Source of the DNA: Escherichia coli | GTDB lineage: Bacteria; Pseudomonadota; Gammaproteobacteria; Enterobacterales; Enterobacteriaceae | DNA length: 64,000 nucleotides | Assembly: GCF_013122565.1 (NCBI RefSeq) | Contig: NZ_CP053258.1 | Direction: 5' to 3' (one strand) | In this document: one piece after another, positions 2,572 through 51,324 of the stretch | Numbering within the stretch: position 1 is the first letter of the stretch | How the letters are laid out: every line of letters starts with the position of its first letter | Program-made: the position numbers and the translations under genes | The notes under the pieces: model-generated | Database searches by the model: none | The model's input: the letters and a program-made list of their open reading frames with translations, nothing else | Told to the model about the DNA's origin: nothing

Positions 2572-2623
2572 ATATAAATAATCGTTCTTGCGCAGTCATC
2601 TGCGCTATTCGGGGGAAATCAGC

Positions 2624-4123
2624 ATGGGTCTGATATCGAGTGTCGTAAAATCACTTTCTAAACTGTCGATGATTGGTCGCGCGCTGATGCTGCCAATTTC
2701 GCTTCTGCCTGCCGCCGGGTTGTTGCTGGCGTTCGGCGATAAATTCCACATGCCGTTGATGATGAATGCCGGCGGTATCATTTTTGATAACTTGCCGATG
2801 CTTTTTGCTATCGGTTCTGCCGTGGGACTGGCTTCAGAATCGGGTATTGCGGCGCTATCCGCAGCTGTATCCGTCTTTGTCACTAATATCACCATCGGTA
2901 CTGTCCTTGGCATCACACCAGAGATGGCCGGGCAAGGCGGTAAATATGCGATGGTGGTGGGGATCCCAACGCTGCAAATGGGCGTCTTCGGCGGCCTGAT
3001 ATGCGGGGTTCTGGCGGCGTGGTGTTACAACCGTTTTCATACCATGCAATTACCAGAATTCCTTGGCTTTTTCTCCGGCAAACGCTTCGTGGCTATCGCG
3101 ACGGCTTTTCTTTCCTTCATCCTTGGCTTGTTACTGCCCTATGTCTGGCAACATATTCAGTCGGGAATCGATGCCCTATCAGTTATCGTCAATGGTGATA
3201 ACCAGGCGGCATCGACCTTTATTTTTGGTGTGACAGAACGTGCGCTCATTCCGCTTGGCCTGCACCACATCTGGTATCCATCGTTCTGGTACTCTTTTGG
3301 TGATTACACCACCCAGGCAGGCCAAATGATCCACGGTGACCAAACAATTTGGTTCAAAATGCTGGAAGAAGGTGTGAAATCGTTCAGTAGCGACAGCTAC
3401 CATAACGCGGGTAAGTTTTTACAGGGCGAGTTCCCGCTCATGCTGTTCGCGCTGCCTGCGGCGTGTCTGGCGATGTACCATGAAGCACACACCAAAAATA
3501 AGAAAATTGCCGCCGGTATTCTGTTCTCTGCCGCATTAACCTGTTTCCTGACAGGTATTACAGAACCCGTTGAATTTACCTTTATTTTCGTGGCACCGGT
3601 ACTGTACGTATTCAACGCGATAATGGCTGGCCTCTCCTATATGGCGATGTATCTGCTCCATGCCCATATTGCAAAATCCTTCTCGGCAGGGCTTATCGAT
3701 TATATTTCGTTTGGCATCCTGCCATCATTTAACGGCTACGAAACCAACTTCCTGAGTGCCATTATTGTTGGCGTACCGATGGCGATTATCTATTACTTCA
3801 CTTTCCGCTTTGTTATTCGCCGTTTTGATGTGAAAACACCGGGTCGAGCCGAAAGCACCGTATCCGCTAACGATAAAACCGATGATGAACTGGCTACGGA
3901 AATTATCAGTCTGCTGGGCGGCCAACAAAATATCTCTTCCGTCGCATCCTGCATAACACGCCTGCGTCTGGAAGTGGCAGATAAGGATGTAGTTGATAAA
4001 GATGGACTGAACAATGTCGGTGCTCGTGGTGTGGTTTTTGTCGGCGATAACGGCATTCAGGTGATTTTTGGCGCACGTGCACAATTTATCGCGCAAACCA
4101 TGTCGACGATGATTGGCAAATAG
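2624..4123 (+). CDS. PTS glucose/maltose-family EIICB component
   Basis: Polytopic membrane N-terminal domain plus C-terminal EIIB with CITRLR phospho-cysteine motif; start placed at ATG 2624 after GGGGGA RBS (track ORF begins at TTG 2588). Confidence 0.8.
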   Translation: MGLISSVVKSLSKLSMIGRALMLPISLLPAAGLLLAFGDKFHMPLMMNAGGIIFDNLPMLFAIGSAVGLASESGIAALSAAVSVFVTNITIGTVLGITPEMAGQGGKYAMVVGIPTLQMGVFGGLICGVLAAWCYNRFHTMQLPEFLGFFSGKRFVAIATAFLSFILGLLLPYVWQHIQSGIDALSVIVNGDNQAASTFIFGVTERALIPLGLHHIWYPSFWYSFGDYTTQAGQMIHGDQTIWFKMLEEGVKSFSSDSYHNAGKFLQGEFPLMLFALPAACLAMYHEAHTKNKKIAAGILFSAALTCFLTGITEPVEFTFIFVAPVLYVFNAIMAGLSYMAMYLLHAHIAKSFSAGLIDYISFGILPSFNGYETNFLSAIIVGVPMAIIYYFTFRFVIRRFDVKTPGRAESTVSANDKTDDELATEIISLLGGQQNISSVASCITRLRLEVADKDVVDKDGLNNVGARGVVFVGDNGIQVIFGARAQFIAQTMSTMIGK

Positions 4124-4190
4124 TCATAAGATTACGCTTTGTTGGAGGTTCTGGTCCCTGACTGGAACCTTCGTACTTATTGTTCAGGGA

Positions 4191-5213
4191 GTGAAGTTGA
4201 AGAAAGTCAGCATAATTGATGTTGCCAAAAGCGCAGGAGTCTCGGTCTCTACTGTGTCGCTGGTCCTGCGCCAGAAAGGCAAAATTTCCGAGGCAACCAT
4301 CGAGAAAGTTCATGCTGCCATTACTGAGCTTGGCTACGTGCATAATGTTGCCGCCGCCAATTTACGCTCCAACACTTCAAATCTTATCGGTCTGATTTTA
4401 CGTGATTTTAGCGATAGCTTTTCCATCAAAGTGATGGCAAGTATTGTTCAGGAACTGGAAGCACAAGGATATATGGTTTTCCTCGGGCAACCACAGAACG
4501 AGCATGAACATCTTGAACGCTGTTTGCTTTCCTTCAAGCAACAAGGTGTTGCCGGAGTGATTTATCTGGCTTCCGATGCGCAGCGTGAAACCTTACCCGC
4601 GCTGATTCGCCAGTGCCCTCTTCCTCTTGTCGTCGCCTCACAATCCCCCATCAAAGATGAATGCAATCTGGTATTGCGCGACAACCAGCAGGCGGCAAGC
4701 CTTGCCACGCGTTATTTAATTGAGCGTGGACATCGTTACATTGCCTACCTCGGCGGCAGAGAAAGCGATCTTATCCGCCAACAGCGACTGGTGGGTTTTC
4801 GCCAGACCCTGGCAAAATTCGGTATTGCCAGTCGTGACGAGTTCACGCCAGCCTGTGACGATGATACATACGCCGCCAGCATGGCCACGCGCCAGTTGCT
4901 GGAGAATAACAATGCCATCACCGCCCTACTCTGCCATTCGCCCGAGGCCATGATTGGCGGTATCAACGGCATACATCAGGTGGGGCGCACCGTCGGGAGA
5001 GACATCTTTCTGACCCAGCAGGTGGCGCTAATTGGTTTTGAAGATATGCTGCACATCAATCTGACCTCGCCCGTTTTCACCTATGTCTCTTCCGCCAGTG
5101 AAGAAACCGGACGCCAGGCTGCTAATCTAATAATCCGCAAGTTAAAAGACCCGGAGCTGCAAATTCAAAGAATTGCGCTTTCCGGGCAACTGGTAGTGCG
5201 GGAATCGGCGTAA
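4191..5213 (+). CDS. LacI-family transcriptional regulator
   Basis: N-terminal HTH KKVSIIDVAKSAGVSVSTVSLVL followed by periplasmic-binding-protein-like sugar-binding fold; start at GTG 4191 or TTG 4197 is uncertain. Confidence 0.8.
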   Translation: MKLKKVSIIDVAKSAGVSVSTVSLVLRQKGKISEATIEKVHAAITELGYVHNVAAANLRSNTSNLIGLILRDFSDSFSIKVMASIVQELEAQGYMVFLGQPQNEHEHLERCLLSFKQQGVAGVIYLASDAQRETLPALIRQCPLPLVVASQSPIKDECNLVLRDNQQAASLATRYLIERGHRYIAYLGGRESDLIRQQRLVGFRQTLAKFGIASRDEFTPACDDDTYAASMATRQLLENNNAITALLCHSPEAMIGGINGIHQVGRTVGRDIFLTQQVALIGFEDMLHINLTSPVFTYVSSASEETGRQAANLIIRKLKDPELQIQRIALSGQLVVRESA

Positions 5214-5336
5214 TTATTTCTGCCAGTCTCCGTCTTTAGCCGGCGGTCATCGCCACAACTGCACTGATGGATATGGTATTCTTTCGAGTATCTTTGCGGG
5301 CACTAACGCCAGGAGTATCGCCATGAGAATGGCGCG

Positions 5337-6818
5337 ATGAACACAGGGAATTTCGAGTCGATACAAATCATACTCGACGCGCAAGAGTGGCGTAGCCTGC
5401 CGCTGCATCTGCGTCTGTATCACGCTTTTCGCCAATTGGTGATTTCCGGCGCGTTGTCTGATGGCGCAAAGCTGCCGTCCGCTCGCGCACTGGCCCAGCA
5501 ACTTGGTCTTTCCAGAGATACCGTCGAAAATGCCTATTCCCAGCTTCAGCGCGACGGTTTTATGACCCGCAGGCAGGGAGCCGGGAGTTTCGCCAGCCGC
5601 CAGGGGATCCCGCAAATTCAGGGGCAGCACGCTCAGCCCCCCTCGCCCGGACAAGCACCGGCATTAACCGCCCGCTGGCAGCCGATTGCCGATCGCGCCG
5701 TCTCTTTCGATGCCCGCCAGATGCAGACCTTTACGCTTGGCCTGCCGGAAACGCGAAACTTCCCGCTAAACATTTGGCAGAACTTTTCCCGCCAGATCCA
5801 ACGTGAGCAGGCGCATACGCTGATGTTAAATAGCGATCCGCAGGGCGAGCCGGAGCTGCGCCAGCAAATTGCGCATTACCTTAATTTTGAACGCGGCGCG
5901 AAGGTAGATGCAGAGCAGATTGTGATTGTCAGCGGCGCACGGCAGGCGTTCTGGCTGTGCGGGCAACTGCTGGCAGAGGCCGGGCAATCAGTGGCGATGG
6001 AAAATCCAGGCTATCCCGGCGCGCGTCAGGCGTTTTCTGCCGCACAGCTTAATCTTCTTCCCGTTGAAGTGGATGACGCCGGGATCCGGGTGGATAAACT
6101 GCCGCCCGCACCGCTGGTTTACGTCACGCCGTCGCACCAGTTTCCTTCTGGTCATTTGCTCACGCTGGCGCGCCGTCACGCCCTGATTGCCTGGGCACAG
6201 GCGCACAATGCGTGGATTATTGAAGACGACTACGACAGCGAATTTCACTACACCAGCGCGCCCGTCGCCTGTCTGCAAGGGTTAGACTGCGAGCAACGCA
6301 CCCTGTATGTCGGCACTTTCAGCAAAACGCTCTATCCTGGTTTGCGCATTGGTTATCTGGTGGTGCCTGCCTCGCTGGCTGCGCACTTTGCCGCCGCACG
6401 TAATTTGCTTGATGGCGCAACGCCTGCGTTATCCCAACTGACGCTGGCGCGATTTATCGAGTCCGGTCATTTTGCCGCCCATATTCGCACCATGCGCAAT
6501 ATGTACGCGGTGCGACAGGCGAGCCTTGCAGAGGCTATTCATCAGCACTTAAGTGAATGGGTCACGCCAGTGGTGACATCCGGTGGATTACAAATGCCCT
6601 GCTGGCTGCATGAAGATGTTGATGAGCAACAGACGCTGAACGCGGCGCGCCGCGCCGGGTTAAATATCGCCGGGATGCGCCAGTTCTGGCTGACGCACCC
6701 CGCGCCCGCGGGCTGGCTGCTGGGATTCGCCGCCTTTACCCCCTACGAAATTGAGCAGGGAGTCAAGCGTCTGCGGGCTGCATTATGCGCTGAAAACGTG
6801 CGCCCAGCCGGGTCATAA
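5337..6818 (+). CDS. MocR/GntR-family regulator with PLP-dependent aminotransferase-like domain
   Basis: 493 aa; N-terminal GntR-type HTH (LPSARALAQQLGLSRDTVENAYSQL) plus large C-terminal aminotransferase-fold domain. Confidence 0.75.
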   Translation: MNTGNFESIQIILDAQEWRSLPLHLRLYHAFRQLVISGALSDGAKLPSARALAQQLGLSRDTVENAYSQLQRDGFMTRRQGAGSFASRQGIPQIQGQHAQPPSPGQAPALTARWQPIADRAVSFDARQMQTFTLGLPETRNFPLNIWQNFSRQIQREQAHTLMLNSDPQGEPELRQQIAHYLNFERGAKVDAEQIVIVSGARQAFWLCGQLLAEAGQSVAMENPGYPGARQAFSAAQLNLLPVEVDDAGIRVDKLPPAPLVYVTPSHQFPSGHLLTLARRHALIAWAQAHNAWIIEDDYDSEFHYTSAPVACLQGLDCEQRTLYVGTFSKTLYPGLRIGYLVVPASLAAHFAAARNLLDGATPALSQLTLARFIESGHFAAHIRTMRNMYAVRQASLAEAIHQHLSEWVTPVVTSGGLQMPCWLHEDVDEQQTLNAARRAGLNIAGMRQFWLTHPAPAGWLLGFAAFTPYEIEQGVKRLRAALCAENVRPAGS

Positions 6819-7869
6819 TCTCATACGGGATGGTGTCGCAGGCAGCCGCAACCTCTTCCAGCGTCTGGCCTGTGCCAATAAACTCCACCTTATCGCCCGC
6901 CGTCGGCGTGACGGCGCTGGCATCGACCATAAAGCTGTCCATACACACCCGCCCCAACACCGGTAACCGCACCCCGCGCCAGCATACGCCCGCCGGAGGA
7001 CGCATATTTCGCGGAACGCCATCCGCGTAACCCGCGGATATCGTGGCGATACGCAGCGGACGCGTGGCGGTAACCGTGCTGCCGTAGCCAACTGGCGTTC
7101 CGGCCGGAACATCCTGCACGCGCAGTATGGTCAGCGTCAGCGTAAAGACCGGTTTTAACGGCCTGGAAAACCACGGCTGGGTGACGCCAAACAGCGCAAT
7201 CCCCGGACGGCAGAGATCTTCCCGCCAGCCCGAGTGCAAAAACATCCCGCAGGAGTTCGCCAGCGAAAATCGGCTGCTGGGGAAAACCGTTTTTGCCTGC
7301 TGAAGTCGCGCGTGTTGCGCCATATTTAACGCATGATCCGGCCTGTCGGCGTTCGCCAGATGGCTGATGATATAATCCGGCGCAGGCCAGTTACGCTCAC
7401 GAAAAATCGCCGCCAGACGCATCAGTTGTTGCGACATCACGCCCAGCCGCGACATCCCGGAATCGAGCTGAATCATCACCGCACGCCGCTGCTGGCGCGT
7501 TTCCAGTAACGTAAGCCACGCCATCACCTGGTCTACGGAATTGAGCAATGGCGTGATCTGCTGCGCGTAACAAAATGCCATCGCCTCCGGCATAACCCCA
7601 TTAAGCACCACCACCCGCGCATCAGCGGGCAAGCATTTACGCAGCGCCACACCTTCAGAAAGCTGCGCGACAAAAAAGATCCGGCAGTTCGCCGCATACA
7701 GGGCGGGAGCAATCGCCTCCGCCCCCAGACCATAGGCATTCGCCTTCAACACCGCGCCACATTGCGCACGGGCAGCATGGCGGGCCAGGGTGCGATAATT
7801 TTCGACAATGGCGGCGAGATTGACGCACATAACGCCGCACGCCGCCTGAATTTCAGCAAGAGTTATCAT
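6763..7869 (-). CDS. alanine racemase-family (fold-type III PLP) enzyme
   Basis: 368 aa; [11 protein letters not shown]-lysine motif typical of Alr; ATG overlaps stop of upstream GlyA-like ORF (ATGA). Confidence 0.75.
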
Positions 7870-8981
7870 TGATAAGGCAACGGATAGCGGTTGGTTAGTT
7901 GTATTACTTTTTGCTCAATATCGGCGCAAATGTCTGCAATATCTGACGCGTTAATGGCCAGAATGATTTCACTTATCCAGTCAGCAATAAGCGCAAAGTC
8001 ATCCGCCTGCATCCCACGCGTGGTGCAGGCCGCGCTGCCAATACGAACGCCGGAGGTAATCGACGGCGGCTGCGGATCGCCCGGCAGGGTGTTTTTATTA
8101 ACCGTGATCCCCGCCAGTTCGAGAAAATACTCTACCTGTGCGCCGGTTAACCCCTGCGGGCGCAGGTCGATAATCCCCAGATGGCAATCGGTGCCGCCCG
8201 TTAACAGCGTCAGACCGCGCTGCGCCAGTTGCTGGCACATCGCCTGCGCATTGTCGATGACCTGCCCGGCATAACGTTTAAATTCCGGTTGTAATGCCTC
8301 GCCAAGCGCCACCGCTTTCGCCGCGATAACGTGCATCAACGGCCCGCCCTGCAAACCGGGAAAGATGGCGCTGTCGATTTTTTTCGCAAGCCGGGCGTCG
8401 TTGGTGAGGATCATGCCGCCGCGCGGCCCGCGCAACGTTTTATGCGTGGTGGTGGTGACCACATCAGCATACGCCAGCGGCGAAGGGAAACAGCCGCCCG
8501 CCACCAGCCCGGCAAAGTGCGCCATATCCACCAGCAAAATGGCGCCCACGGCATCGGCAATGCGGCGAAAACGGGCAAAATCATAGCGGCGTGGATAAGC
8601 CGATCCTCCGGCAATAATCAACCGTGGGCGCTCACGCAGCGCGATCATCTCGACTTCATCCATATCAATCAGGCCACTATGGGCATCGACGCCATAGTGA
8701 AAAGCGTTAAACCATTTGCCAGATTGATTGACCGGCGAACCGTGCGTGAGATGCCCGCCGCATTGCAGGCTCATGCCAAGAATTTTGTCGCCGGGTTTCA
8801 GCAACGCCAGATAGACCGCCTGATTCGCCTGGCTGCCGGAGTGAGGCTGCACATTGACGTAACGTGCGCCAAAGAGTTGCTGGGCGCGGGTTATCGCCAG
8901 CATCTCAACCTCATCAATAAACTTACAGCCGCCGTAGTAGCGATGCTGGTAATAACCTTCGGCGTATTTATTGGTTAACAC
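7866..8981 (-). CDS. serine hydroxymethyltransferase (GlyA) paralog; N-terminus interrupted by in-frame TAG (possible pseudogene, intact frame would start at ATG 9104)
   Basis: ORF aligns to SHMT from LTNKYAEGY onward ([21 protein letters not shown] motifs). Upstream in-frame codons read [43 protein letters not shown], still SHMT-like. Confidence 0.65.
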
Positions 8982-9337
8982 CGACCCCTGCGCCGCGAGA
9001 ACAGCGGGGCTTACGAAATTCTCCGAGGCAATCAGTTCCAGCGACTACTGCTGGCGCTGTTGCTCCTGGTTAATCAATGCAAAAAGTGGATCGTTATTTA
9101 TCATGCGCTTCCCCCGAAAATTCATCATGCGATGATTTTCGCAGGGAAAACGTCGCCCGCACCCTGCCACTTTTTAGAATGAGCGCAGACCACCTATGTC
9201 GTTTTACTTAAAAGAAGAGGGAAGAAGGCTCCAGGCATCTCCATATGCGATTCTGGTTGGTAATACATCATATTCCAGCTGCTCTTATCTGCCTACGTTA
9301 TTGCATAGGCAGAATAAGGCAGCCTCAATACGTACTT

Positions 9338-10891
9338 TTACTTGATATATTTCACGCGCATACCGTTGATCTGTTCATCCGTGATGGTGTTACCCGCTTT
9401 GAAGTAATCAACCACGGCGTGATAAACGTAATAACCGCCCGTTGTGTTACGCGCTTTCCCTTCGGTAAAGGCGGTAAAACCATCTCCACCATCAGCAAGG
9501 AAACTCTGGGTGGCAATAGAATAAACTGTCGCATCTTCAATGGGTTTGCCATTCAGAGTCAGTGTGATTACCCGCTGACCAACCGGCTTGCTGCTGTCGT
9601 ACTTCATTTCCAGGCCTTTCGATACCTGTAAAACGCCATTACTTAAACTTGCGCCGTGTTCCATCAAACTGCGTAATTGTTTCCCTGTGAGATCCATCGT
9701 CACCAGTTCGTTGGGGAACGGGAAGGTACTGATGACGCCGCCCATCGTAATCGCCCCTGCGGGGATCTCATTGCGAATACCGCCAGAGTTGGTTAAGGCT
9801 ATTTGGGTGTTTTTACCCGCCGCTACCAGTAAAGCGTCAGCCGCCAGGTTCCCGAGGGAAGCCGATTCACCATAGGCACGTTTTAATTCAACCGGCGATT
9901 GCGCCACCGTTTGTTGCACCACTTCATCAAGCTTTTTATTCCAGCCGTCGATCACCTGTTTTGTTTGCGGATCGGGCTTCCACTCGTCGGCGTAAATGGT
10001 TTTCAGCTCGAAGTTTTTCACCGTAAAATCATGCGGCTTCTCTTTGTAGTCGAGGACCAGTTTGCCCACATCAATCCCGCCGCTGTCAGTGGAGAGGATG
10101 AGCGTATTGCCGACTTTAATCGGTTCCGGCGTACCCACATGTGCATGTCCGGTGATCAAAATATCCAGCCCTTTCACCTGACTTGCCGTCTGAATATCTT
10201 TATCCAGTGCGCGACGCACATCGGTCCCTCCCATACTGGACTGGCGGGCCGGAACACCTTCATGGATCAGGGCGACGGTCAAATCAACCTTGCCTTTAAG
10301 TTCATCGATATAACGTTGTAGCCATTTAATTTCATCGCGCGCTTCAATACCCACGCGCGTGGCAGCAGATACCGTATCGTTGAAAGCAAATACTCCGTGC
10401 AAACCTATAACGCCTATTTTCACGCCGTCTTTTTCGATGATGGTATATGGCTTATCCCAGAATGATTTACTGCTGTTCTGATAAAAAACATTGCCCTGCA
10501 CAATAGGGAATTTTGCCTGACTCAACTGTAATAATGTGTTGTCCCAGCCGTGGTCAAATTCATGGTTGCCTATCGTGACGGCATCAAACGGCATAGTATT
10601 CATAATATCGATAATAGCCTTACCTTTGGTCAGGCTGCTGATATATGGCCCGGTAAAATAATCACCCGCATCAAAAAACCATGTCGCTTTATTTTTTGCT
10701 TTTTCTTGCTTAACCAGCGTAGTGATATTTGCCCAGCCGCCAATATCCCGTTTACCGTCAGCGATCCACGGCACTTTATAAGGCTCGACATGCGCATGGA
10801 GGTCGTTGGTATAAATGATGGTGACATCTTTGGCGCAAGCCCAGAACGGCAATGTTAATGCGATACCCGCAGCAAGTATTTTAATTTTCAT
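9338..10891 (-). CDS. secreted bifunctional metallophosphatase/5'-nucleotidase (UshA-like)
   Basis: 517 aa; signal peptide [20 protein letters not shown]; calcineurin-like metallophosphatase motifs (GNHEFD, GHAH) and C-terminal 5'-nucleotidase domain. Confidence 0.8.
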
Positions 10892-11023: not shown

Positions 11024-12154
11024 ATGTCAACTCTGTTTACGATTAATGCCTGCAAGTCGTTTGGTTGCCGTAATTTAGGGCAACCAACATCGACAGATTA
11101 CAGCTGGCCAGACTATCGACTGGGTTATCCGGCACTGCACTGTCGGGCATGTGGAAGTTACCCGCCGTTGTTTGACGAACAGCAATTTCGTGACTGGTTG
11201 TCAGTTCACTTATCTACTTTTGCAACTGAGAAAGGTCATTTCTGCCCGGTATGTTATGGCACAAAGACGATTTGTTATGGCCACAATCCACAGGGGTCGC
11301 AACGCATTCAATGTCGTAACTGCAAAAAAGTCTGGACACCTAAACAATATCAGAAAGAAATAACGCCTCCTGAAATAATCGAAACGGTTGCTCTTCTGGT
11401 GCCATTTCAGGGAGCCAGCAATGGGCAGAAACTGTATGTTTTAATCAGTTTTGATGCTCTTCGCGGTAATATTCTTCATCTTTCTACTAATTACACGCAG
11501 CATCAGGCTGGAGAAAGTCTGCATTATCGATACAGAGGAAATGCAGAACCAGAGTTACACGAGAGTAATATTGTACAACGCGTTGATATGCGCGAAGCAC
11601 AATTTCTACGCCGCAGTCAGTTTGATGAAATTCAGTATGGCAGCGCAGCGCTCAAACGCAATGCTAAAGGTATTATTCTGCGTCCGGTTATCACTGCACA
11701 CGGGCATTTCAGAGTACTGAATATTTTATTCCCTACAGTAAAAACACATGTAATTTCACACGAGTGTTTTTTAAGAGGTGCCATTATTACGGCATGGGCT
11801 GATCTGTTTCGCCAACAGCAAGGTGAAATTTGGTTTATTGAAGAGGAAATAGCTGACTATACCGATAATATGCCCTGGAGTTTTCAGGGAACAACATATC
11901 ACGGCTGGTGGAAAAATCAGTGGCAACTTTGGGGTCAGGGCAAAAATCGTAAAATGGTATGTGCATTAACAGGCGGAAATAACAGCAAAGCTGAAATGCT
12001 CTCTTTCGCAACCAGCAGACATTTTATCGACTGGCTACATAAACAAGCAGTATTTACTCACAGCACCCCGCTTTCCGCAGGGCGCGTTACGCAAATACTG
12101 CTTTCTCTGGCTCAGGATTACAACAACTGCGCCAGCCGGTTGATATCCGACTGA
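11024..12154 (+). CDS. hypothetical protein with InsA/IS1595-type zinc-ribbon motifs (transposase-like, likely domesticated or relic)
   Basis: 376 aa; paired CxxC motifs (HCRACG, CPVCYG...QCRNCKKVW) resembling transposase zinc ribbons; 3' end overlaps metL 3' end by 37 nt, so no room for a terminal inverted repeat. Confidence 0.5.
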   Translation: MSTLFTINACKSFGCRNLGQPTSTDYSWPDYRLGYPALHCRACGSYPPLFDEQQFRDWLSVHLSTFATEKGHFCPVCYGTKTICYGHNPQGSQRIQCRNCKKVWTPKQYQKEITPPEIIETVALLVPFQGASNGQKLYVLISFDALRGNILHLSTNYTQHQAGESLHYRYRGNAEPELHESNIVQRVDMREAQFLRRSQFDEIQYGSAALKRNAKGIILRPVITAHGHFRVLNILFPTVKTHVISHECFLRGAIITAWADLFRQQQGEIWFIEEEIADYTDNMPWSFQGTTYHGWWKNQWQLWGQGKNRKMVCALTGGNNSKAEMLSFATSRHFIDWLHKQAVFTHSTPLSAGRVTQILLSLAQDYNNCASRLISD

Positions 12155-14550
12155 ATCGCCCCGGCGGTGACATCGCGCCCTGCGCCTGGTCCGCGGATCA
12201 CCAGAGGGTTATCGCGATACCAGCGGCTTTCGATGGCAAAGACGTTATCGCACGGCAGCAGTGATGCCAGCGGATGATCTTCACGCACCGCTTCCACGCC
12301 CACACGCGCTTTGCCGTTGGCATCGAAACGCGCCACGTAGCGCAGCACCAGCCCCATTTCGCGGGCCGCTTCCAGCCGTTGCAACATCTGCTCGTTGAGT
12401 TCATCGCCGTTTTCAAAGAAATGGTCGATGCTACCGCCTTCGCAATGGGCAGGCACCAGCGATTCCACGCGCACCTGATCCGGTTCGATGTCGTAACCCG
12501 CTTCACGCGCCAGAATCACCAGCTTGCGCATTACGTCTTTGCCGGAGAGGTCGTCACGCGGATCAGGCTCGGTTAAGCCCTGCTGCCACGCCTGATCCAC
12601 CAGCTCGGTAAACGGCACGCTACCGTCGAATTGCAGGAACAGCCAGGAGAGCGTGCCGGAGAAGATCCCACTGATCGACAAAATAGTATCGCCGCTGTCG
12701 ATCAGATCGCGCACGGTGTGGTTGATCGGCAAGCCCGCGCCGACGGTAGCGTTGTACAGCCAGTGACGCCCGGTTTTTTCGAAGGCGTCGTGGATCTGGC
12801 GATATTTATTGCTGTCGCTGGCTCCTGCCAGTTTGTTGGCGCTAATGACGTGGAAACCGTGGCTGGCGAAATCGAGATACTGGTCAGCAAGCTGCTGGCT
12901 GGCGGTAACGTCCAGCACCACTAAATCATCATACGGATGGGCGCGCATCCACAGGAACAGCGACTCTTCATCCTGCTCAACCGCTTCATCGTTGAAGAAG
13001 GCTAACGCGCGGCTGGCGTCCAGCCCGTCATAACTCAACAGGCTGCGGCGGCTGTCCACCACGCCTGCCAGCACAAATTCAAAGCCGGTACGTGCCGAAA
13101 GCGTGCTCTGCTCACGGGCGAACAGTTCCAGCCAGCGGGAACCGATATTGCCCTTGCCGAACAATACCAGGCCGATGCGTTTTTCCGCGCGGAAGACGGA
13201 CTGATGCAGCCCCTGAATCAGGCTTTCGGTCGGGCCGGTGCGCAGAACTGCCACCAGGCTGATGCCGTCATCGGACTGCCAGGTAAACTCGACCGGCTGG
13301 CCTTTCAGTTGCTGCCAGAAGCGGTGGCAATGCAGCGGGTTACGGGTGACACCCGCCCCGACCATCGCCACCAGCGCCAACCCCTGACGCAGGCGCAGCT
13401 CGCCAGGTAATCCCGCTTCGTCTAGGATTTTCAGCGCACTGTCGGCCACTTCTGAGGTGTAGCAAAATTGCAGCAACTGGCGATCGTTATGCACGCCAAC
13501 CGCCAGTGGGCGCACCTGCGCGCGTTTCAGGATCTGGTCGATCTCTTTATGCGCCAGTTTGAAATCCTGGCTGGCGGGCACCTGAAACTCAATCAAGCAG
13601 ACATCGTCGTGGCTGGTGACAATACGCGCACCAGTACCGGAGGCCAGCACGCGTTCAATGCGCGTGGAACCTTGATCCGGCGTGTAGCTACAGCGCAGTT
13701 GCAGGTCAATTTCGCTGCCTGATACCGGCTGTAAAGTACGGGCGTGGAGAACCGGAGCCGCCAGACGCGCCAGTTCGCTGGCTTCATCCAGACGCAGCAA
13801 CGGCAACAGGCAGGCATCTTTCACTTTACGCGGGTCGGCACTGTATACCCCGGCGACGTCGCTCCAGATGGTTACACGAGAAACACCCGCCAGCGCACCG
13901 ATTTGTGTCGCGGAGTAGTCGGAACCGTTACGCCCCAGCAGCACCGTTTCACCGGCGTTGTTACGGCTGATAAACCCGGTCACCACCAGACGTTTACCCG
14001 GATGTTGTACCAGTAGCTGTTGCAGCAACGGGTAAGAAAGCCCTTCATCAACCTGCGGCTGCGCAGCGCGTTCAGCGCGTAAAAACTCGCGGGCATCAAG
14101 CCAGGCCGCTGGCAGCCCTTGTTGATTAAGTACCGCAGACATCAGGCGCGCCGACCACACTTCACCATGGCCCACCACTTCCGCATACACCGCATCGTTA
14201 ATACCGCTGTCGAGCAGCGCCGCCAGGCGCTCAAGATCGCTGACAAAAGCGCTAATGAGGCTATCGGCTTCTTCAGCGGGTAGCAGACCGCTAATCAGAT
14301 CGCACTGATAGCGACGCAGCGTTTGTTGAACCTGATGCGCAGAGAGACGATCGGTCTGGCTTAGTTTCAACCAGTTAATCAACTGGTTAGTGGTGCTACC
14401 AGCGGCGGAAACCACCATCATATCGTCAGGCTGAGAGTACTCCGCCATAATGCCCGCGACACGCAAATAACACTTCACATCAGCCAGACTACTGCCACCA
14501 AATTTATGCAGTTGACGACCTTTCGCCCCTGCCTGCGCAATCACACTCAT
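12118..14550 (-). CDS. metL: bifunctional aspartokinase II / homoserine dehydrogenase II
   Basis: 810-aa ORF MSVIAQAGAKGRQLHKFGGSSLADVKCYLRVAG... matches MetL full length. Confidence 0.95.
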   Translation of the reverse strand: MSVIAQAGAKGRQLHKFGGSSLADVKCYLRVAGIMAEYSQPDDMMVVSAAGSTTNQLINWLKLSQTDRLSAHQVQQTLRRYQCDLISGLLPAEEADSLISAFVSDLERLAALLDSGINDAVYAEVVGHGEVWSARLMSAVLNQQGLPAAWLDAREFLRAERAAQPQVDEGLSYPLLQQLLVQHPGKRLVVTGFISRNNAGETVLLGRNGSDYSATQIGALAGVSRVTIWSDVAGVYSADPRKVKDACLLPLLRLDEASELARLAAPVLHARTLQPVSGSEIDLQLRCSYTPDQGSTRIERVLASGTGARIVTSHDDVCLIEFQVPASQDFKLAHKEIDQILKRAQVRPLAVGVHNDRQLLQFCYTSEVADSALKILDEAGLPGELRLRQGLALVAMVGAGVTRNPLHCHRFWQQLKGQPVEFTWQSDDGISLVAVLRTGPTESLIQGLHQSVFRAEKRIGLVLFGKGNIGSRWLELFAREQSTLSARTGFEFVLAGVVDSRRSLLSYDGLDASRALAFFNDEAVEQDEESLFLWMRAHPYDDLVVLDVTASQQLADQYLDFASHGFHVISANKLAGASDSNKYRQIHDAFEKTGRHWLYNATVGAGLPINHTVRDLIDSGDTILSISGIFSGTLSWLFLQFDGSVPFTELVDQAWQQGLTEPDPRDDLSGKDVMRKLVILAREAGYDIEPDQVRVESLVPAHCEGGSIDHFFENGDELNEQMLQRLEAAREMGLVLRYVARFDANGKARVGVEAVREDHPLASLLPCDNVFAIESRWYRDNPLVIRGPGAGRDVTAGAIQSDINRLAQLL

Positions 14551-16307: not shown

Positions 16308-16335
16308 AGCGGAAAAGAGCGGCGCGGAGTGGAAT

Positions 16336-16434
16336 CGCCTGATGCGCTACGCTTATCAGGCCTACGTCATATTGCAATTTATTGAATTTGCACGAACTTG
16401 TAGGCCGGATAAGGCGTTCACGCCGCATCCGGCA
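16336..16434. repeat. BIME/REP palindromic units downstream of metJ
   Basis: Two inverted REP units (CGCCTGATGCGCTACGCTTATCAGGCCTAC ... GTAGGCCGGATAAGGCGTTCACGCCGCATCCGGCA). Confidence 0.85.
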
Positions 16435-16490
16435 TAAACAACGAGCACGTTGTCTGCGACCCACCGCTTTTTATACATGGACGTTTAACG

Positions 16491-30108: not shown

Positions 30109-30142
30109 TGTCAGGCACCTGAATCGATTGCCTGATGCTGAT

Positions 30143-30231
30143 CGCCTGATGCGACGCTTACGCGTCTTATCAGGCCTACGAGCCAATGCCATTTTGTGTA
30201 GGCGGGATAAGGCGTTCACGCCGCATCCGGC
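30143..30231. repeat. BIME/REP palindromic units downstream of glpK
   Basis: Two inverted REP units (GCCTGATGCGACGCTTACGCGTCTTATCAGGCCTAC ... GTAGGCGGGATAAGGCGTTCACGCCGCATCCGGCA). Confidence 0.85.
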
Positions 30232-30337
30232 ATCACGCAGACTCTGAAACCGTGCGGGGGCAACCCCGCACACATCAATAATCCCGCCCTTCCCCTGTGC
30301 TACACTTCGCGCCATTCCTTACTGCTTAGAGTTTGCT

Positions 30338-37083: not shown

Positions 37084-37247
37084 CGCCTGACTCTCTTATG
37101 TTGTGTTGTGATGAGCAAAGCGTGCCAGAAGGTTAACCAAACATTAAAGAATAAAAAAAGATTGGCTATAACTTGCGGGTATATGTTGGGGGTTAAAAAG
37201 GCGGAAGAAATCCGCCTCATATTGCTGACAAAGTGCGCTTTATCGAT

Positions 37248-37345
37248 GCCGGATGCGGCGCGAACGCCTTATCCGGCCTACAAAAGCTTGTAAATTCAAT
37301 AAATTGTAGAATTCATGTAGGCCTGATAAGCGAAGCGCATCAGGC
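37248..37345. repeat. BIME/REP palindromic units between sbp and pfkA
   Basis: GCCGGATGCGGCGCGAACGCCTTATCCGGCCTAC ... GTAGGCCTGATAAGCGAAGCGCATCAGGC. Confidence 0.85.
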
Positions 37346-37401
37346 CTTTTTGCTTCTGTCATCGGTTTCAGGCTAAAGGAATCTGCCTTTTTCCGAAATC
37401 A

Positions 37402-42325: not shown

Positions 42326-42409
42326 GTAGGCAGGATAAGGCGTTTACGCCGCATCCGGCATTTGAGCAGGATGCCTGATGCGATGCTGGTAGCGTCTTAT
42401 CAGGCCTAC
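42326..42409. repeat. BIME/REP palindromic units downstream of cpxA
   Basis: GTAGGCAGGATAAGGCGTTTACGCCGCATCCGGCA ... GCCTGATGCGATGCTGGTAGCGTCTTATCAGGCCTAC. Confidence 0.85.
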
Positions 42410-51193: not shown

Positions 51194-51198
51194 ACACT

Positions 51199-51324
51199 GC
51201 CGGATGCGGCGCGAGCGCCTTATCCGGCCTACAGGTCGGCAACAGTTGTAGGCCTGATAAGACGCGACAGCGTCGCATCAGGCATTGATTGCCGGATGCG
51301 GCACGAGTGCCTTATCCGGCCTAC
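51199..51324. repeat. BIME with three REP units between rhaA and rhaD
   Basis: GCCGGATGCGGCGCGAGCGCCTTATCCGGCCTAC / GTAGGCCTGATAAGACGCGACAGCGTCGCATCAGGC / GCCGGATGCGGCACGAGTGCCTTATCCGGCCTAC. Confidence 0.9.

Follow-up and report, generated by a model that had tools for sequence, protein, structure and literature searches.

A stable stem-loop without a U-tract downstream of a 5'-nucleotidase gene in the hypervariable metL-metF interval of Escherichia coli

Introduction

In Escherichia coli, the interval between metF (1240-2130, - strand) and metL (12118-14550, - strand) is hypervariable. The 64-kb stretch of DNA analysed here (hereafter, the window) carries in this interval an extragenic inverted repeat, which lies 20 nt downstream of the stop codon of a 5'-nucleotidase gene and upstream of the start of an SHMT/GlyA-like gene. 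Does this palindrome act at the DNA level, as a site bound by a regulator or as a boundary of exchanged segments, or at the RNA level, as part of the nucleotidase message? The assignment to E. coli is supported by a core segment of the window, which shares 99.5% identity with many complete genomes. The features of the region are listed in Table 1. The labels 5'-nucleotidase, GlyA-like and Alr-like, assigned to the flanking genes in the initial annotation, are right by Pfam.

Table 1 Features of the metL-metF interval and reference elements in the window.
Feature	Position	Strand	Remarks
PTS EIIC/B gene	2588-4123	+	ORF listing, Pfam
LacI/MalI-like regulator gene	4113-5213	+	ORF listing, Pfam
MocR/PdxR-like GntR-aminotransferase regulator gene	5337-6818	+	ORF listing, Pfam
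Alanine-racemase-like (Alr-like) gene	6763-7869	-	ORF listing, Pfam
SHMT/GlyA-like gene	9104-7866	-	ATG 9104-9102; ORF listing, Pfam
Conserved upstream block, ~90 nt	9105-9195	-	Aligned in E. coli, Salmonella and the ICE-borne copy; not part of the hairpin
Pyrimidine tract GCCUUCUUCCCUCUUCUUUU	9210-9229	-	40-60 nt 3' of the hairpin; weak candidate Rho-loading region, after Dar & Sorek 2018
Promoter-like match	9267-9295	-	-35 TAGGCA 9295-9290, 17-nt spacer, -10 TATGAT 9272-9267; overlaps the hairpin
Full imperfect hairpin, 26 bp	9269-9332	-	Nucleotidase 3' UTR; RNA fold
Hairpin core, 20 bp	9277-9324	-	Homology breaks here; pairing kept across alleles
Left arm TTATCTGCCTA	9285-9295	+	Resembles REP tail (CTTATC-TGCCTAC)
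Spacer between arms CGTTATTGCA	9296-9305	+	Two extra pairs in the RNA fold, leaving a 6-nt apical loop 9298-9303
Right arm TAGGCAGAATAA	9306-9317	+	One bulged A
Stop codon TAA of 5'-nucleotidase	9338-9340	-	ORF listing, Pfam
Metallophosphatase/5'-nucleotidase gene	9338-10891	-	517 aa, periplasmic-type; ORF listing, Pfam
376-aa protein gene	11024-12154	+	No Pfam match; ORF listing
BIMEs	16335-16436, 30142-30234, 37246-37347, 42326-42409, 51197-51324		Reference set for the REP comparison

Alternative fillings of the metL-metF interval

Homology common to all of the arrangements examined extends up to position 2277 of the window, approximately 150 nt upstream of metF, and resumes from the metL stop. 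Between these limits (2277/2278 to 12117), at least five alternative fillings are found in E. coli. K-12 features a 200-bp filler with a true REP (17.2 bits). The filling of strain 7/2, a type present in approximately 1,833 of 5,426 genomes, consists of the 376-aa gene, the nucleotidase gene and a 220-bp filler, for which BLAST detected no significant similarity to the window or to other loci. PTS and MalI-like genes converge on the nucleotidase gene in the UTME-7 type (8 genomes), and a larger island including MocR-Alr-SHMT is found in 2013C-4282, WL297 and RMDEC465. The window combines the PTS/MalI-like genes with MocR-Alr-SHMT, a combination that occurs in none of the 5,426 complete E. coli genomes.

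The SHMT-like gene of the window is a pseudogene, as it is interrupted by an in-frame TAG at 9045-9047 (- strand), after codon 19. An internal stop in this gene is also flagged by RefSeq in 2013C-4282 and WL297. The gene is intact (412-420 aa) in Salmonella enterica and in RMDEC465, the one E. coli genome with an intact copy. The MocR-like and Alr-like ORFs are convergent and share 56 nt at their 3' ends (6763-6818), an overlap that is also annotated in related E. coli and Salmonella loci.

Anatomy and stability of the hairpin

The inverted repeat is present as first described. Its arms, TTATCTGCCTA and TAGGCAGAATAA, flank the spacer CGTTATTGCA and form an inner stem of eight perfect pairs (TCTGCCTA/TAGGCAGA), followed by a 1-nt bulge and three more pairs. 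The initial annotation had estimated a stem of ~7-11 bp, which is correct for the arms and incomplete for the structure, as the palindrome is the core of a 26-bp hairpin. Pairing extends outward through GCTGC/GCAGC and next through CGTATT/AATATG. The full hairpin is made of four helices (6+6+5+9 bp), interrupted by two 1-nt bulges and one 2x2 internal loop, and is closed by the 6-nt apical loop; the outer stem is 5 nt, and the core 13 nt, away from the nucleotidase stop.

After the stem, the - strand reads GAUGUAUUACC and the + strand CUCAAUACGUAC. Neither flank contains a T-run, and a terminator scan found 0 sites in 8800-9600, in agreement with the earlier view that the repeat is no classical terminator. 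Similar to intrinsic terminators, the hairpin is a G+C-containing stem-loop located shortly after a stop codon. In contrast to them, it features no U-run on either strand, its apical loop measures 6 nt and its stem is far longer than usual. The palindrome was consequently rejected as an intrinsic terminator, since the consensus scan finds none and the U-tract is lacking.

The hairpin is real and statistically non-random. On the - strand, which is the sense strand of the nucleotidase gene, it folds at about -35.4 to -36 kcal/mol, compared with -16.8 +/- 2.9 kcal/mol for shuffled sequences (z -6.75), and none of 200 shuffles folds as well. Only 0.1% of all 70-nt windows, taken on both strands of the 64-kb window, are as stable, a level on par with that of the BIMEs of the window. 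The bare 8+8 palindrome is unremarkable: the window contains one, where 0.2 would be expected, and 18 of 100 shuffles contain at least one. On the + strand (antisense) the fold reaches -26.4 kcal/mol. The sense strand of the window is more stable by 9 kcal/mol, because three pairs are G.U, and G.U pairs give the sense strand an advantage of 9-11 kcal/mol over the antisense strand in both island alleles described below. The reverse holds for the allele found in strain 7/2 (L001-type), in which antisense folds better than sense.

A sigma-70-like promoter match (Table 1) occurs at chance level (1 found, 1.0 expected), and its -35 hexamer is a poorer match, TAGGCG, in the other island allele. An Rfam scan of 8700-9700 at permissive E-values returned only generic miRNA-precursor hairpin matches, far below gathering scores. 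Resemblances of the palindrome to LexA, attC and CytR-type motifs were noticed by eye and are unsupported.

Distribution and allelic variation

The palindrome is single-copy. A motif search found no other copy in the 64-kb window, outside this locus in the 5,426 E. coli genomes or in plasmids. The 128-nt island-specific spacer matches this locus only, in 3 of 5,426 E. coli genomes, and likewise has no match in plasmids. A metagenome scan yielded one true match among nine (contig L097), carrying the common island allele, and one Logan assembly contig (L095) is a further carrier. When 100,044 species genomes were searched with the Alr-like protein, the best match was only 48% identical, and the search thus provided no orthologous loci.

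Only two alleles are clearly homologous, the one found in the window and a second one, present in all five other carriers (four E. coli sequences and one metagenome contig). On the - strand, the second allele reads TTA-TCCGTATA...TAGGCGGATAA, and the window reads TTATTCTGCCTA...TAGGCAGATAA. The two differ at 5 positions within 33 nt, whereas the other ~194 nt of the spacer contain only 4 differences, and both fold at -33 to -36 kcal/mol. Random mutation sets of equal size, introduced into either allele, cause a mean loss of 8-10 kcal/mol, and only 0.5-4.4% of them keep the observed stability. The changes between alleles thus preserve pairing, although template-switch (quasi-palindrome) mutation can give the same pattern without selection.

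The hairpin of the 7/2 type (ATTCGGCCT...AGGCCGAAT) was taken as the third allele. It was undetected by BLAST and aligns gap-free to the palindrome over 46 nt with 59% identity. One stem position is U:A in the window, C:G in the second island allele and G:C in the 7/2 type, and two more positions alternate between U.G and C:G. This three-way covariation rests on a short alignment, as the third allele could be aligned over those 46 nt only.

In the 7/2 type, the nucleotidase stop is followed by a 9+3-bp stem. Among 7/2-type genomes with ~8% divergent flanks, this stem is either invariant or different at a single base (G->A in ATCC 25922). Other U-less hairpins, which are non-alignable, occur 3' of the stop of the same gene in UTME-7, in which a 9-bp stem starts with GCCGGATGA, and in Salmonella, in which one of two hairpins downstream of the nucleotidase gene has a 13-14-bp GC-rich stem without a U-run. 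A strong hairpin is therefore found after the nucleotidase stop in every arrangement examined, even where the sequence is unrelated. With the turnover of accessory gene cassettes, such hairpins are replaced rather than conserved.

E. coli HS-02 (positions ~1500-1650 of its contig L108) has lost both the nucleotidase gene and the 376-aa gene. Between metF and metL, this strain keeps the first 15 nt after the nucleotidase stop, along with the 7/2-type hairpin.

Relation to REP and BIME elements

The window contains 11 bona fide REPs (Y and Z2 types) arranged in five BIMEs, mostly as tail-to-tail pairs with 15-35 nt linkers. A profile built from these 11 REPs gives them 27-42 bits, whereas the palindrome reaches 3.8-4.0 bits (E 5-8), with a match restricted to model positions 21-35, corresponding to the REP tail. 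Weak partial matches to the model are found in all four nucleotidase-downstream variants.

At the sequence level, the left arm CTTATC-TGCCTAC compares with CTTATCCTGCCTAC, and 14 of the 15 bases of the right arm TAGGCAGAATAAGGC match the REP at 42326 (TAGGCAGGATAAGGC). Apart from the arm 13-mer CTTATTCTGCCTA itself, the only sequence of the 64-kb window that lies within one edit of it is the true REP tail at 42327-42339. The arms carry GTAGGC on the - strand and ATAGGC on the + strand. These resemblances hint at ancestry and at no more.

The hairpin resembles REP/BIME elements in its extragenic 3'-UTR position and in its proposed terminator/stabiliser role. One of its arms matches the REP tail CTTATCCGGCCTAC at 13 of 14 positions with one deletion, the other being the 14/15 match mentioned above, and the tails face each other, as they do at a BIME tail-to-tail junction. 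In contrast to REPs, only tails of ~15 nt are present, the body (GCCGGATGCGGCG...CGCC) and the internal hairpin are missing, and the pairing register of the palindrome is inside-out. Moreover, REPs occur as many dispersed copies per genome, whereas the palindrome is single-copy. On account of its insignificant profile score, its single copy and the lack of a 30-50 nt Y/Z1/Z2 unit, the palindrome was rejected as a REP. Since the arms look in sequence like two facing REP tails, derivation from a REP/BIME may be proposed; REP ancestry of the hairpin, which is no bona fide REP, is a tentative reading that we hold at somewhat less than even odds.

Upstream region of the SHMT-like/Alr-like operon

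SHMT orthologues 92-93% identical to that of the window are found in Salmonella enterica, in which genes occur in the same order (metL ... nucleotidase-SHMT-Alr-MocR-metF). An 86% identical SHMT orthologue is associated with Alr and MocR, and not with the nucleotidase, in an ICE-like context, beside ParA/DnaB-type genes. In this copy, found in contig k141_32483 (1-12350) of ENA ERZ27277080, the SHMT-Alr-MocR cassette adjoins ParA, DnaB-like and DUF2857 genes. Genes of these three kinds are typical of integrative conjugative elements, and their proximity suggests that the cassette moves horizontally.

The palindrome is absent upstream of SHMT in both Salmonella and the ICE-context copy, and the region is non-alignable outside E. 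coli. The three sources can be aligned over the ~90-nt block closer to the SHMT-like gene (Table 1), which features the direct repeats GTGGTC and GTGGCA, 23 nt apart, and a TCATC-N4-GATGA palindrome. As the block, unlike the hairpin palindrome, is conserved in all copies, the operon control region most likely resides at 9105-9195. The SHMT-like/Alr-like operon thus likely has its promoter and a MocR-type operator in this block. If the upstream ATG-ATG at 9128-9123 is the true SHMT start, some of the block may be coding.

RMDEC465 carries a 41-nt insertion, CTCTTCATTTCGGAGTTAATACCGGTATTGTCAGCGATGTT, inside the pyrimidine tract located between the hairpin and this block (7400-7460 of its contig, corresponding to position ~9218 of the window).

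Homology breaks at the hairpin

When the window is compared with either the 7/2 or the UTME-7 type, BLAST homology stops at 9323/9324, at the base of the hairpin core, nearly all of which is on the island side. A near-copy of the arm, TTATTTCTGCC, is found at 5214-5224, immediately after the MalI-like stop. In comparison with UTME-7, this is exactly where the 4.1-kb MocR-Alr-SHMT segment has its left boundary. The near-copy has the same orientation as the left arm (9285-9293) and the opposite orientation to the right arm. Sequences like the arm 10-mer are frequent, with 21 near-matches in the window compared with 5.7 in shuffles, and the boundary coincidence, noticed post hoc, has therefore a p of only ~0.01-0.03.

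No terminal repeat or att site is shared with the 2277/2278 junction, and neither flush repeats nor target duplications are found at the junctions. Pfam identified no integrase, transposase or recombinase in the segment. The hairpin was accordingly rejected as the end of a mobile element (TIR or att), given that flush repeats and a recombinase are missing and that the copy at 5214-5224 is not flush.

Proposed function and alternative explanations

The reading that we favour, to which we assign a probability of about one half, is that the hairpin is a U-tract-less 3'-UTR stem-loop of the nucleotidase mRNA, which would block 3'-exonucleases, might aid Rho-dependent termination and would separate the downstream operon transcript. 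We infer the transcription, Rho and exonuclease steps alike from the position of the hairpin and by analogy. Transcription of the nucleotidase gene would run through 9332-9269, and the 26-bp hairpin would form in the RNA. As no U-tract follows, RNA polymerase would not undergo intrinsic release. Termination would rather be diffuse, probably assisted by Rho, in the untranslated and mildly C>G stretch after the hairpin. 3'->5' exonucleases would then trim the transcript to the base of the hairpin, which would both set and protect the mature 3' end. The net effect would be a stabilised nucleotidase message and limited read-through into the GlyA(SHMT)-like/Alr-like operon, for which the conserved block at 9105-9195 would provide separate control.

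The analogy is with Rho-dependent E. coli transcripts, the steady-state 3' ends of which map just after stable stem-loops without U-tracts (Dar & Sorek 2018, PMC6061677). Such stem-loops protect against PNPase and RNase II, and a mild C-over-G enrichment is found downstream of them (PMC6061677). REP hairpins have similarly been described to cause partial Rho-dependent termination and to stabilise the mRNA upstream of them, although the influence of a hairpin on half-life varies with context and is not uniform (bioRxiv 10.64898/2026.03.23.713779). The hairpin of the window shares with the Dar & Sorek stem-loops its stability, the lack of a U-tract, its position just 3' of the coding region, the mild C-over-G excess directly after it and the presence of a separate control region for the following gene. 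It differs from them in that its stem is unusually long (26 bp) and its C>G skew is marginal. The C/G ratio peaks locally at 1.38 in the 78 nt after the hairpin (9273-9196), which include the pyrimidine tract; this skew agrees with the proposed role but is weak.

The initial annotation had proposed that the repeat either separates or couples the transcripts of the nucleotidase and GlyA-like/Alr-like genes. Separation at the RNA level is the better supported option, as suggested by sense-strand stability and by the pairing-preserving alleles. Co-transcription may still occur, although the downstream operon evidently has a conserved upstream region of its own.

The same annotation had likened the repeat to a protein-binding palindrome or an RNA processing site, and comparison with other genomes does not support the first of these. 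An operator bound by a MocR/PdxR-like regulator or by another dimeric factor, and controlling the SHMT-like/Alr-like operon, would fit the location of the palindrome upstream of the operon, the CTGCCT/AGGCAG boxes at 9289-9294, 9307-9312 and 9317-9322 (18- and 10-bp spacing) and the sigma-70-like -35 inside the palindrome. As in MocR/GabR/PdxR-type operators, a repeat sequence is found upstream of an operon that adjoins a MocR-family regulator gene. Unlike those operators, the palindrome does not co-occur with regulator and operon in other genomes. Salmonella and the ICE copy keep SHMT, Alr and MocR without it, and the conserved candidate operator, with its direct GTGG repeats, is a different element, located 75-140 nt further downstream. 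The arms, moreover, differ at 5 positions between the E. coli alleles, and no second copy occurs in the window or, outside this locus, in the 5,426 E. coli genomes. An operator role is thus highly improbable, and the Salmonella and ICE-copy comparison led us to reject the palindrome as a MocR operator. Cleavage by RNase III is hardly more credible. According to this alternative, a co-transcribed nucleotidase/SHMT-like RNA would be cut at the ~26-bp duplex, uncoupling the two halves and exposing the upstream message to decay, in a sib-like retroregulation. The stem, with its small interruptions, spans more than two helical turns, as do RNase III substrates; read-through is also plausible, because there is no intrinsic terminator. 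However, two bulges and a 2x2 internal loop interrupt the stem, and that of the homologous L001-type allele, 12-13 bp long, is too short for RNase III.

The most serious competitor of the 3'-UTR stem-loop is a functionless relic in a spacer with fast turnover, which would be either a decayed REP/BIME fragment or the product of a local inverted duplication, kept palindromic by template-switch mutation and not by selection. We regard it as unlikely, at odds of about one to three. The one-edit match between the arm 13-mer and a genuine REP tail, the full REP of the K-12 version of the hotspot and the weak partial REP-model matches of all four downstream variants are in its favour, as are the non-alignable spacers of E. 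coli and Salmonella and the clustering of the five allele differences, as from one or two multi-base events. On the other hand, G.U strand asymmetry favours the transcribed strand in both island alleles, a strong hairpin follows the nucleotidase stop in all arrangements, and REP-like 3'-UTR hairpins have measured effects (bioRxiv 10.64898/2026.03.23.713779). The palindrome could also be, as a cruciform or a REP-like target, a recombination hot spot or boundary at which the 4.1-kb segment was inserted or deleted. The end of homology to both common arrangements at the base of the hairpin core, the third arm copy at the other boundary of the segment and the occurrence of REPs at this hotspot in K-12 would be accounted for, but the junctions lack flush terminal repeats and target duplications, the arm-like 10-mer is frequent and the coincidence marginal and post hoc, the segment carries neither integrase nor transposase, and the short alignment suggests that the hairpin is also found in strains without the segment. 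This makes a boundary role improbable. Slightly less probable still is the more specific proposal that the 4.1-kb cassette is gained and lost at a REP-derived palindrome, which would be the breakpoint or target at the DNA level, with one arm repeated at the far boundary of the cassette and with its unusually fast, pairing-preserving divergence arising from hairpin-templated mutation; if true, the locus would be a small natural example of palindrome-driven island turnover.

If the 3'-UTR stem-loop reading is right, the hairpin adds one more U-tract-less stem-loop to those that shape mRNA ends and insulate neighbouring genes in E. coli. Features of this kind are ordinary, although the accessory locus that carries this one has rarely been sampled. 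In practical terms, the palindrome should be annotated neither as an operator nor as an intrinsic terminator.

Other palindromes and hairpins in the interval

Two tandem copies of a perfect palindrome, GTAGAACGTTCTAC, are found at 2540-2572, just upstream of the PTS EIIC/B gene. That gene is followed by the LacI/MalI-like regulator gene, and the two palindromes look like a duplicated LacI-family operator. At the opposite end of the interval, 70 nt of the - strand (12036-12105), just 3' of the metL stop, are predicted to form a very stable hairpin (-38.2 kcal/mol). This hairpin, which may be the metL terminator, overlaps the convergent 376-aa ORF at the 3' end of the latter.
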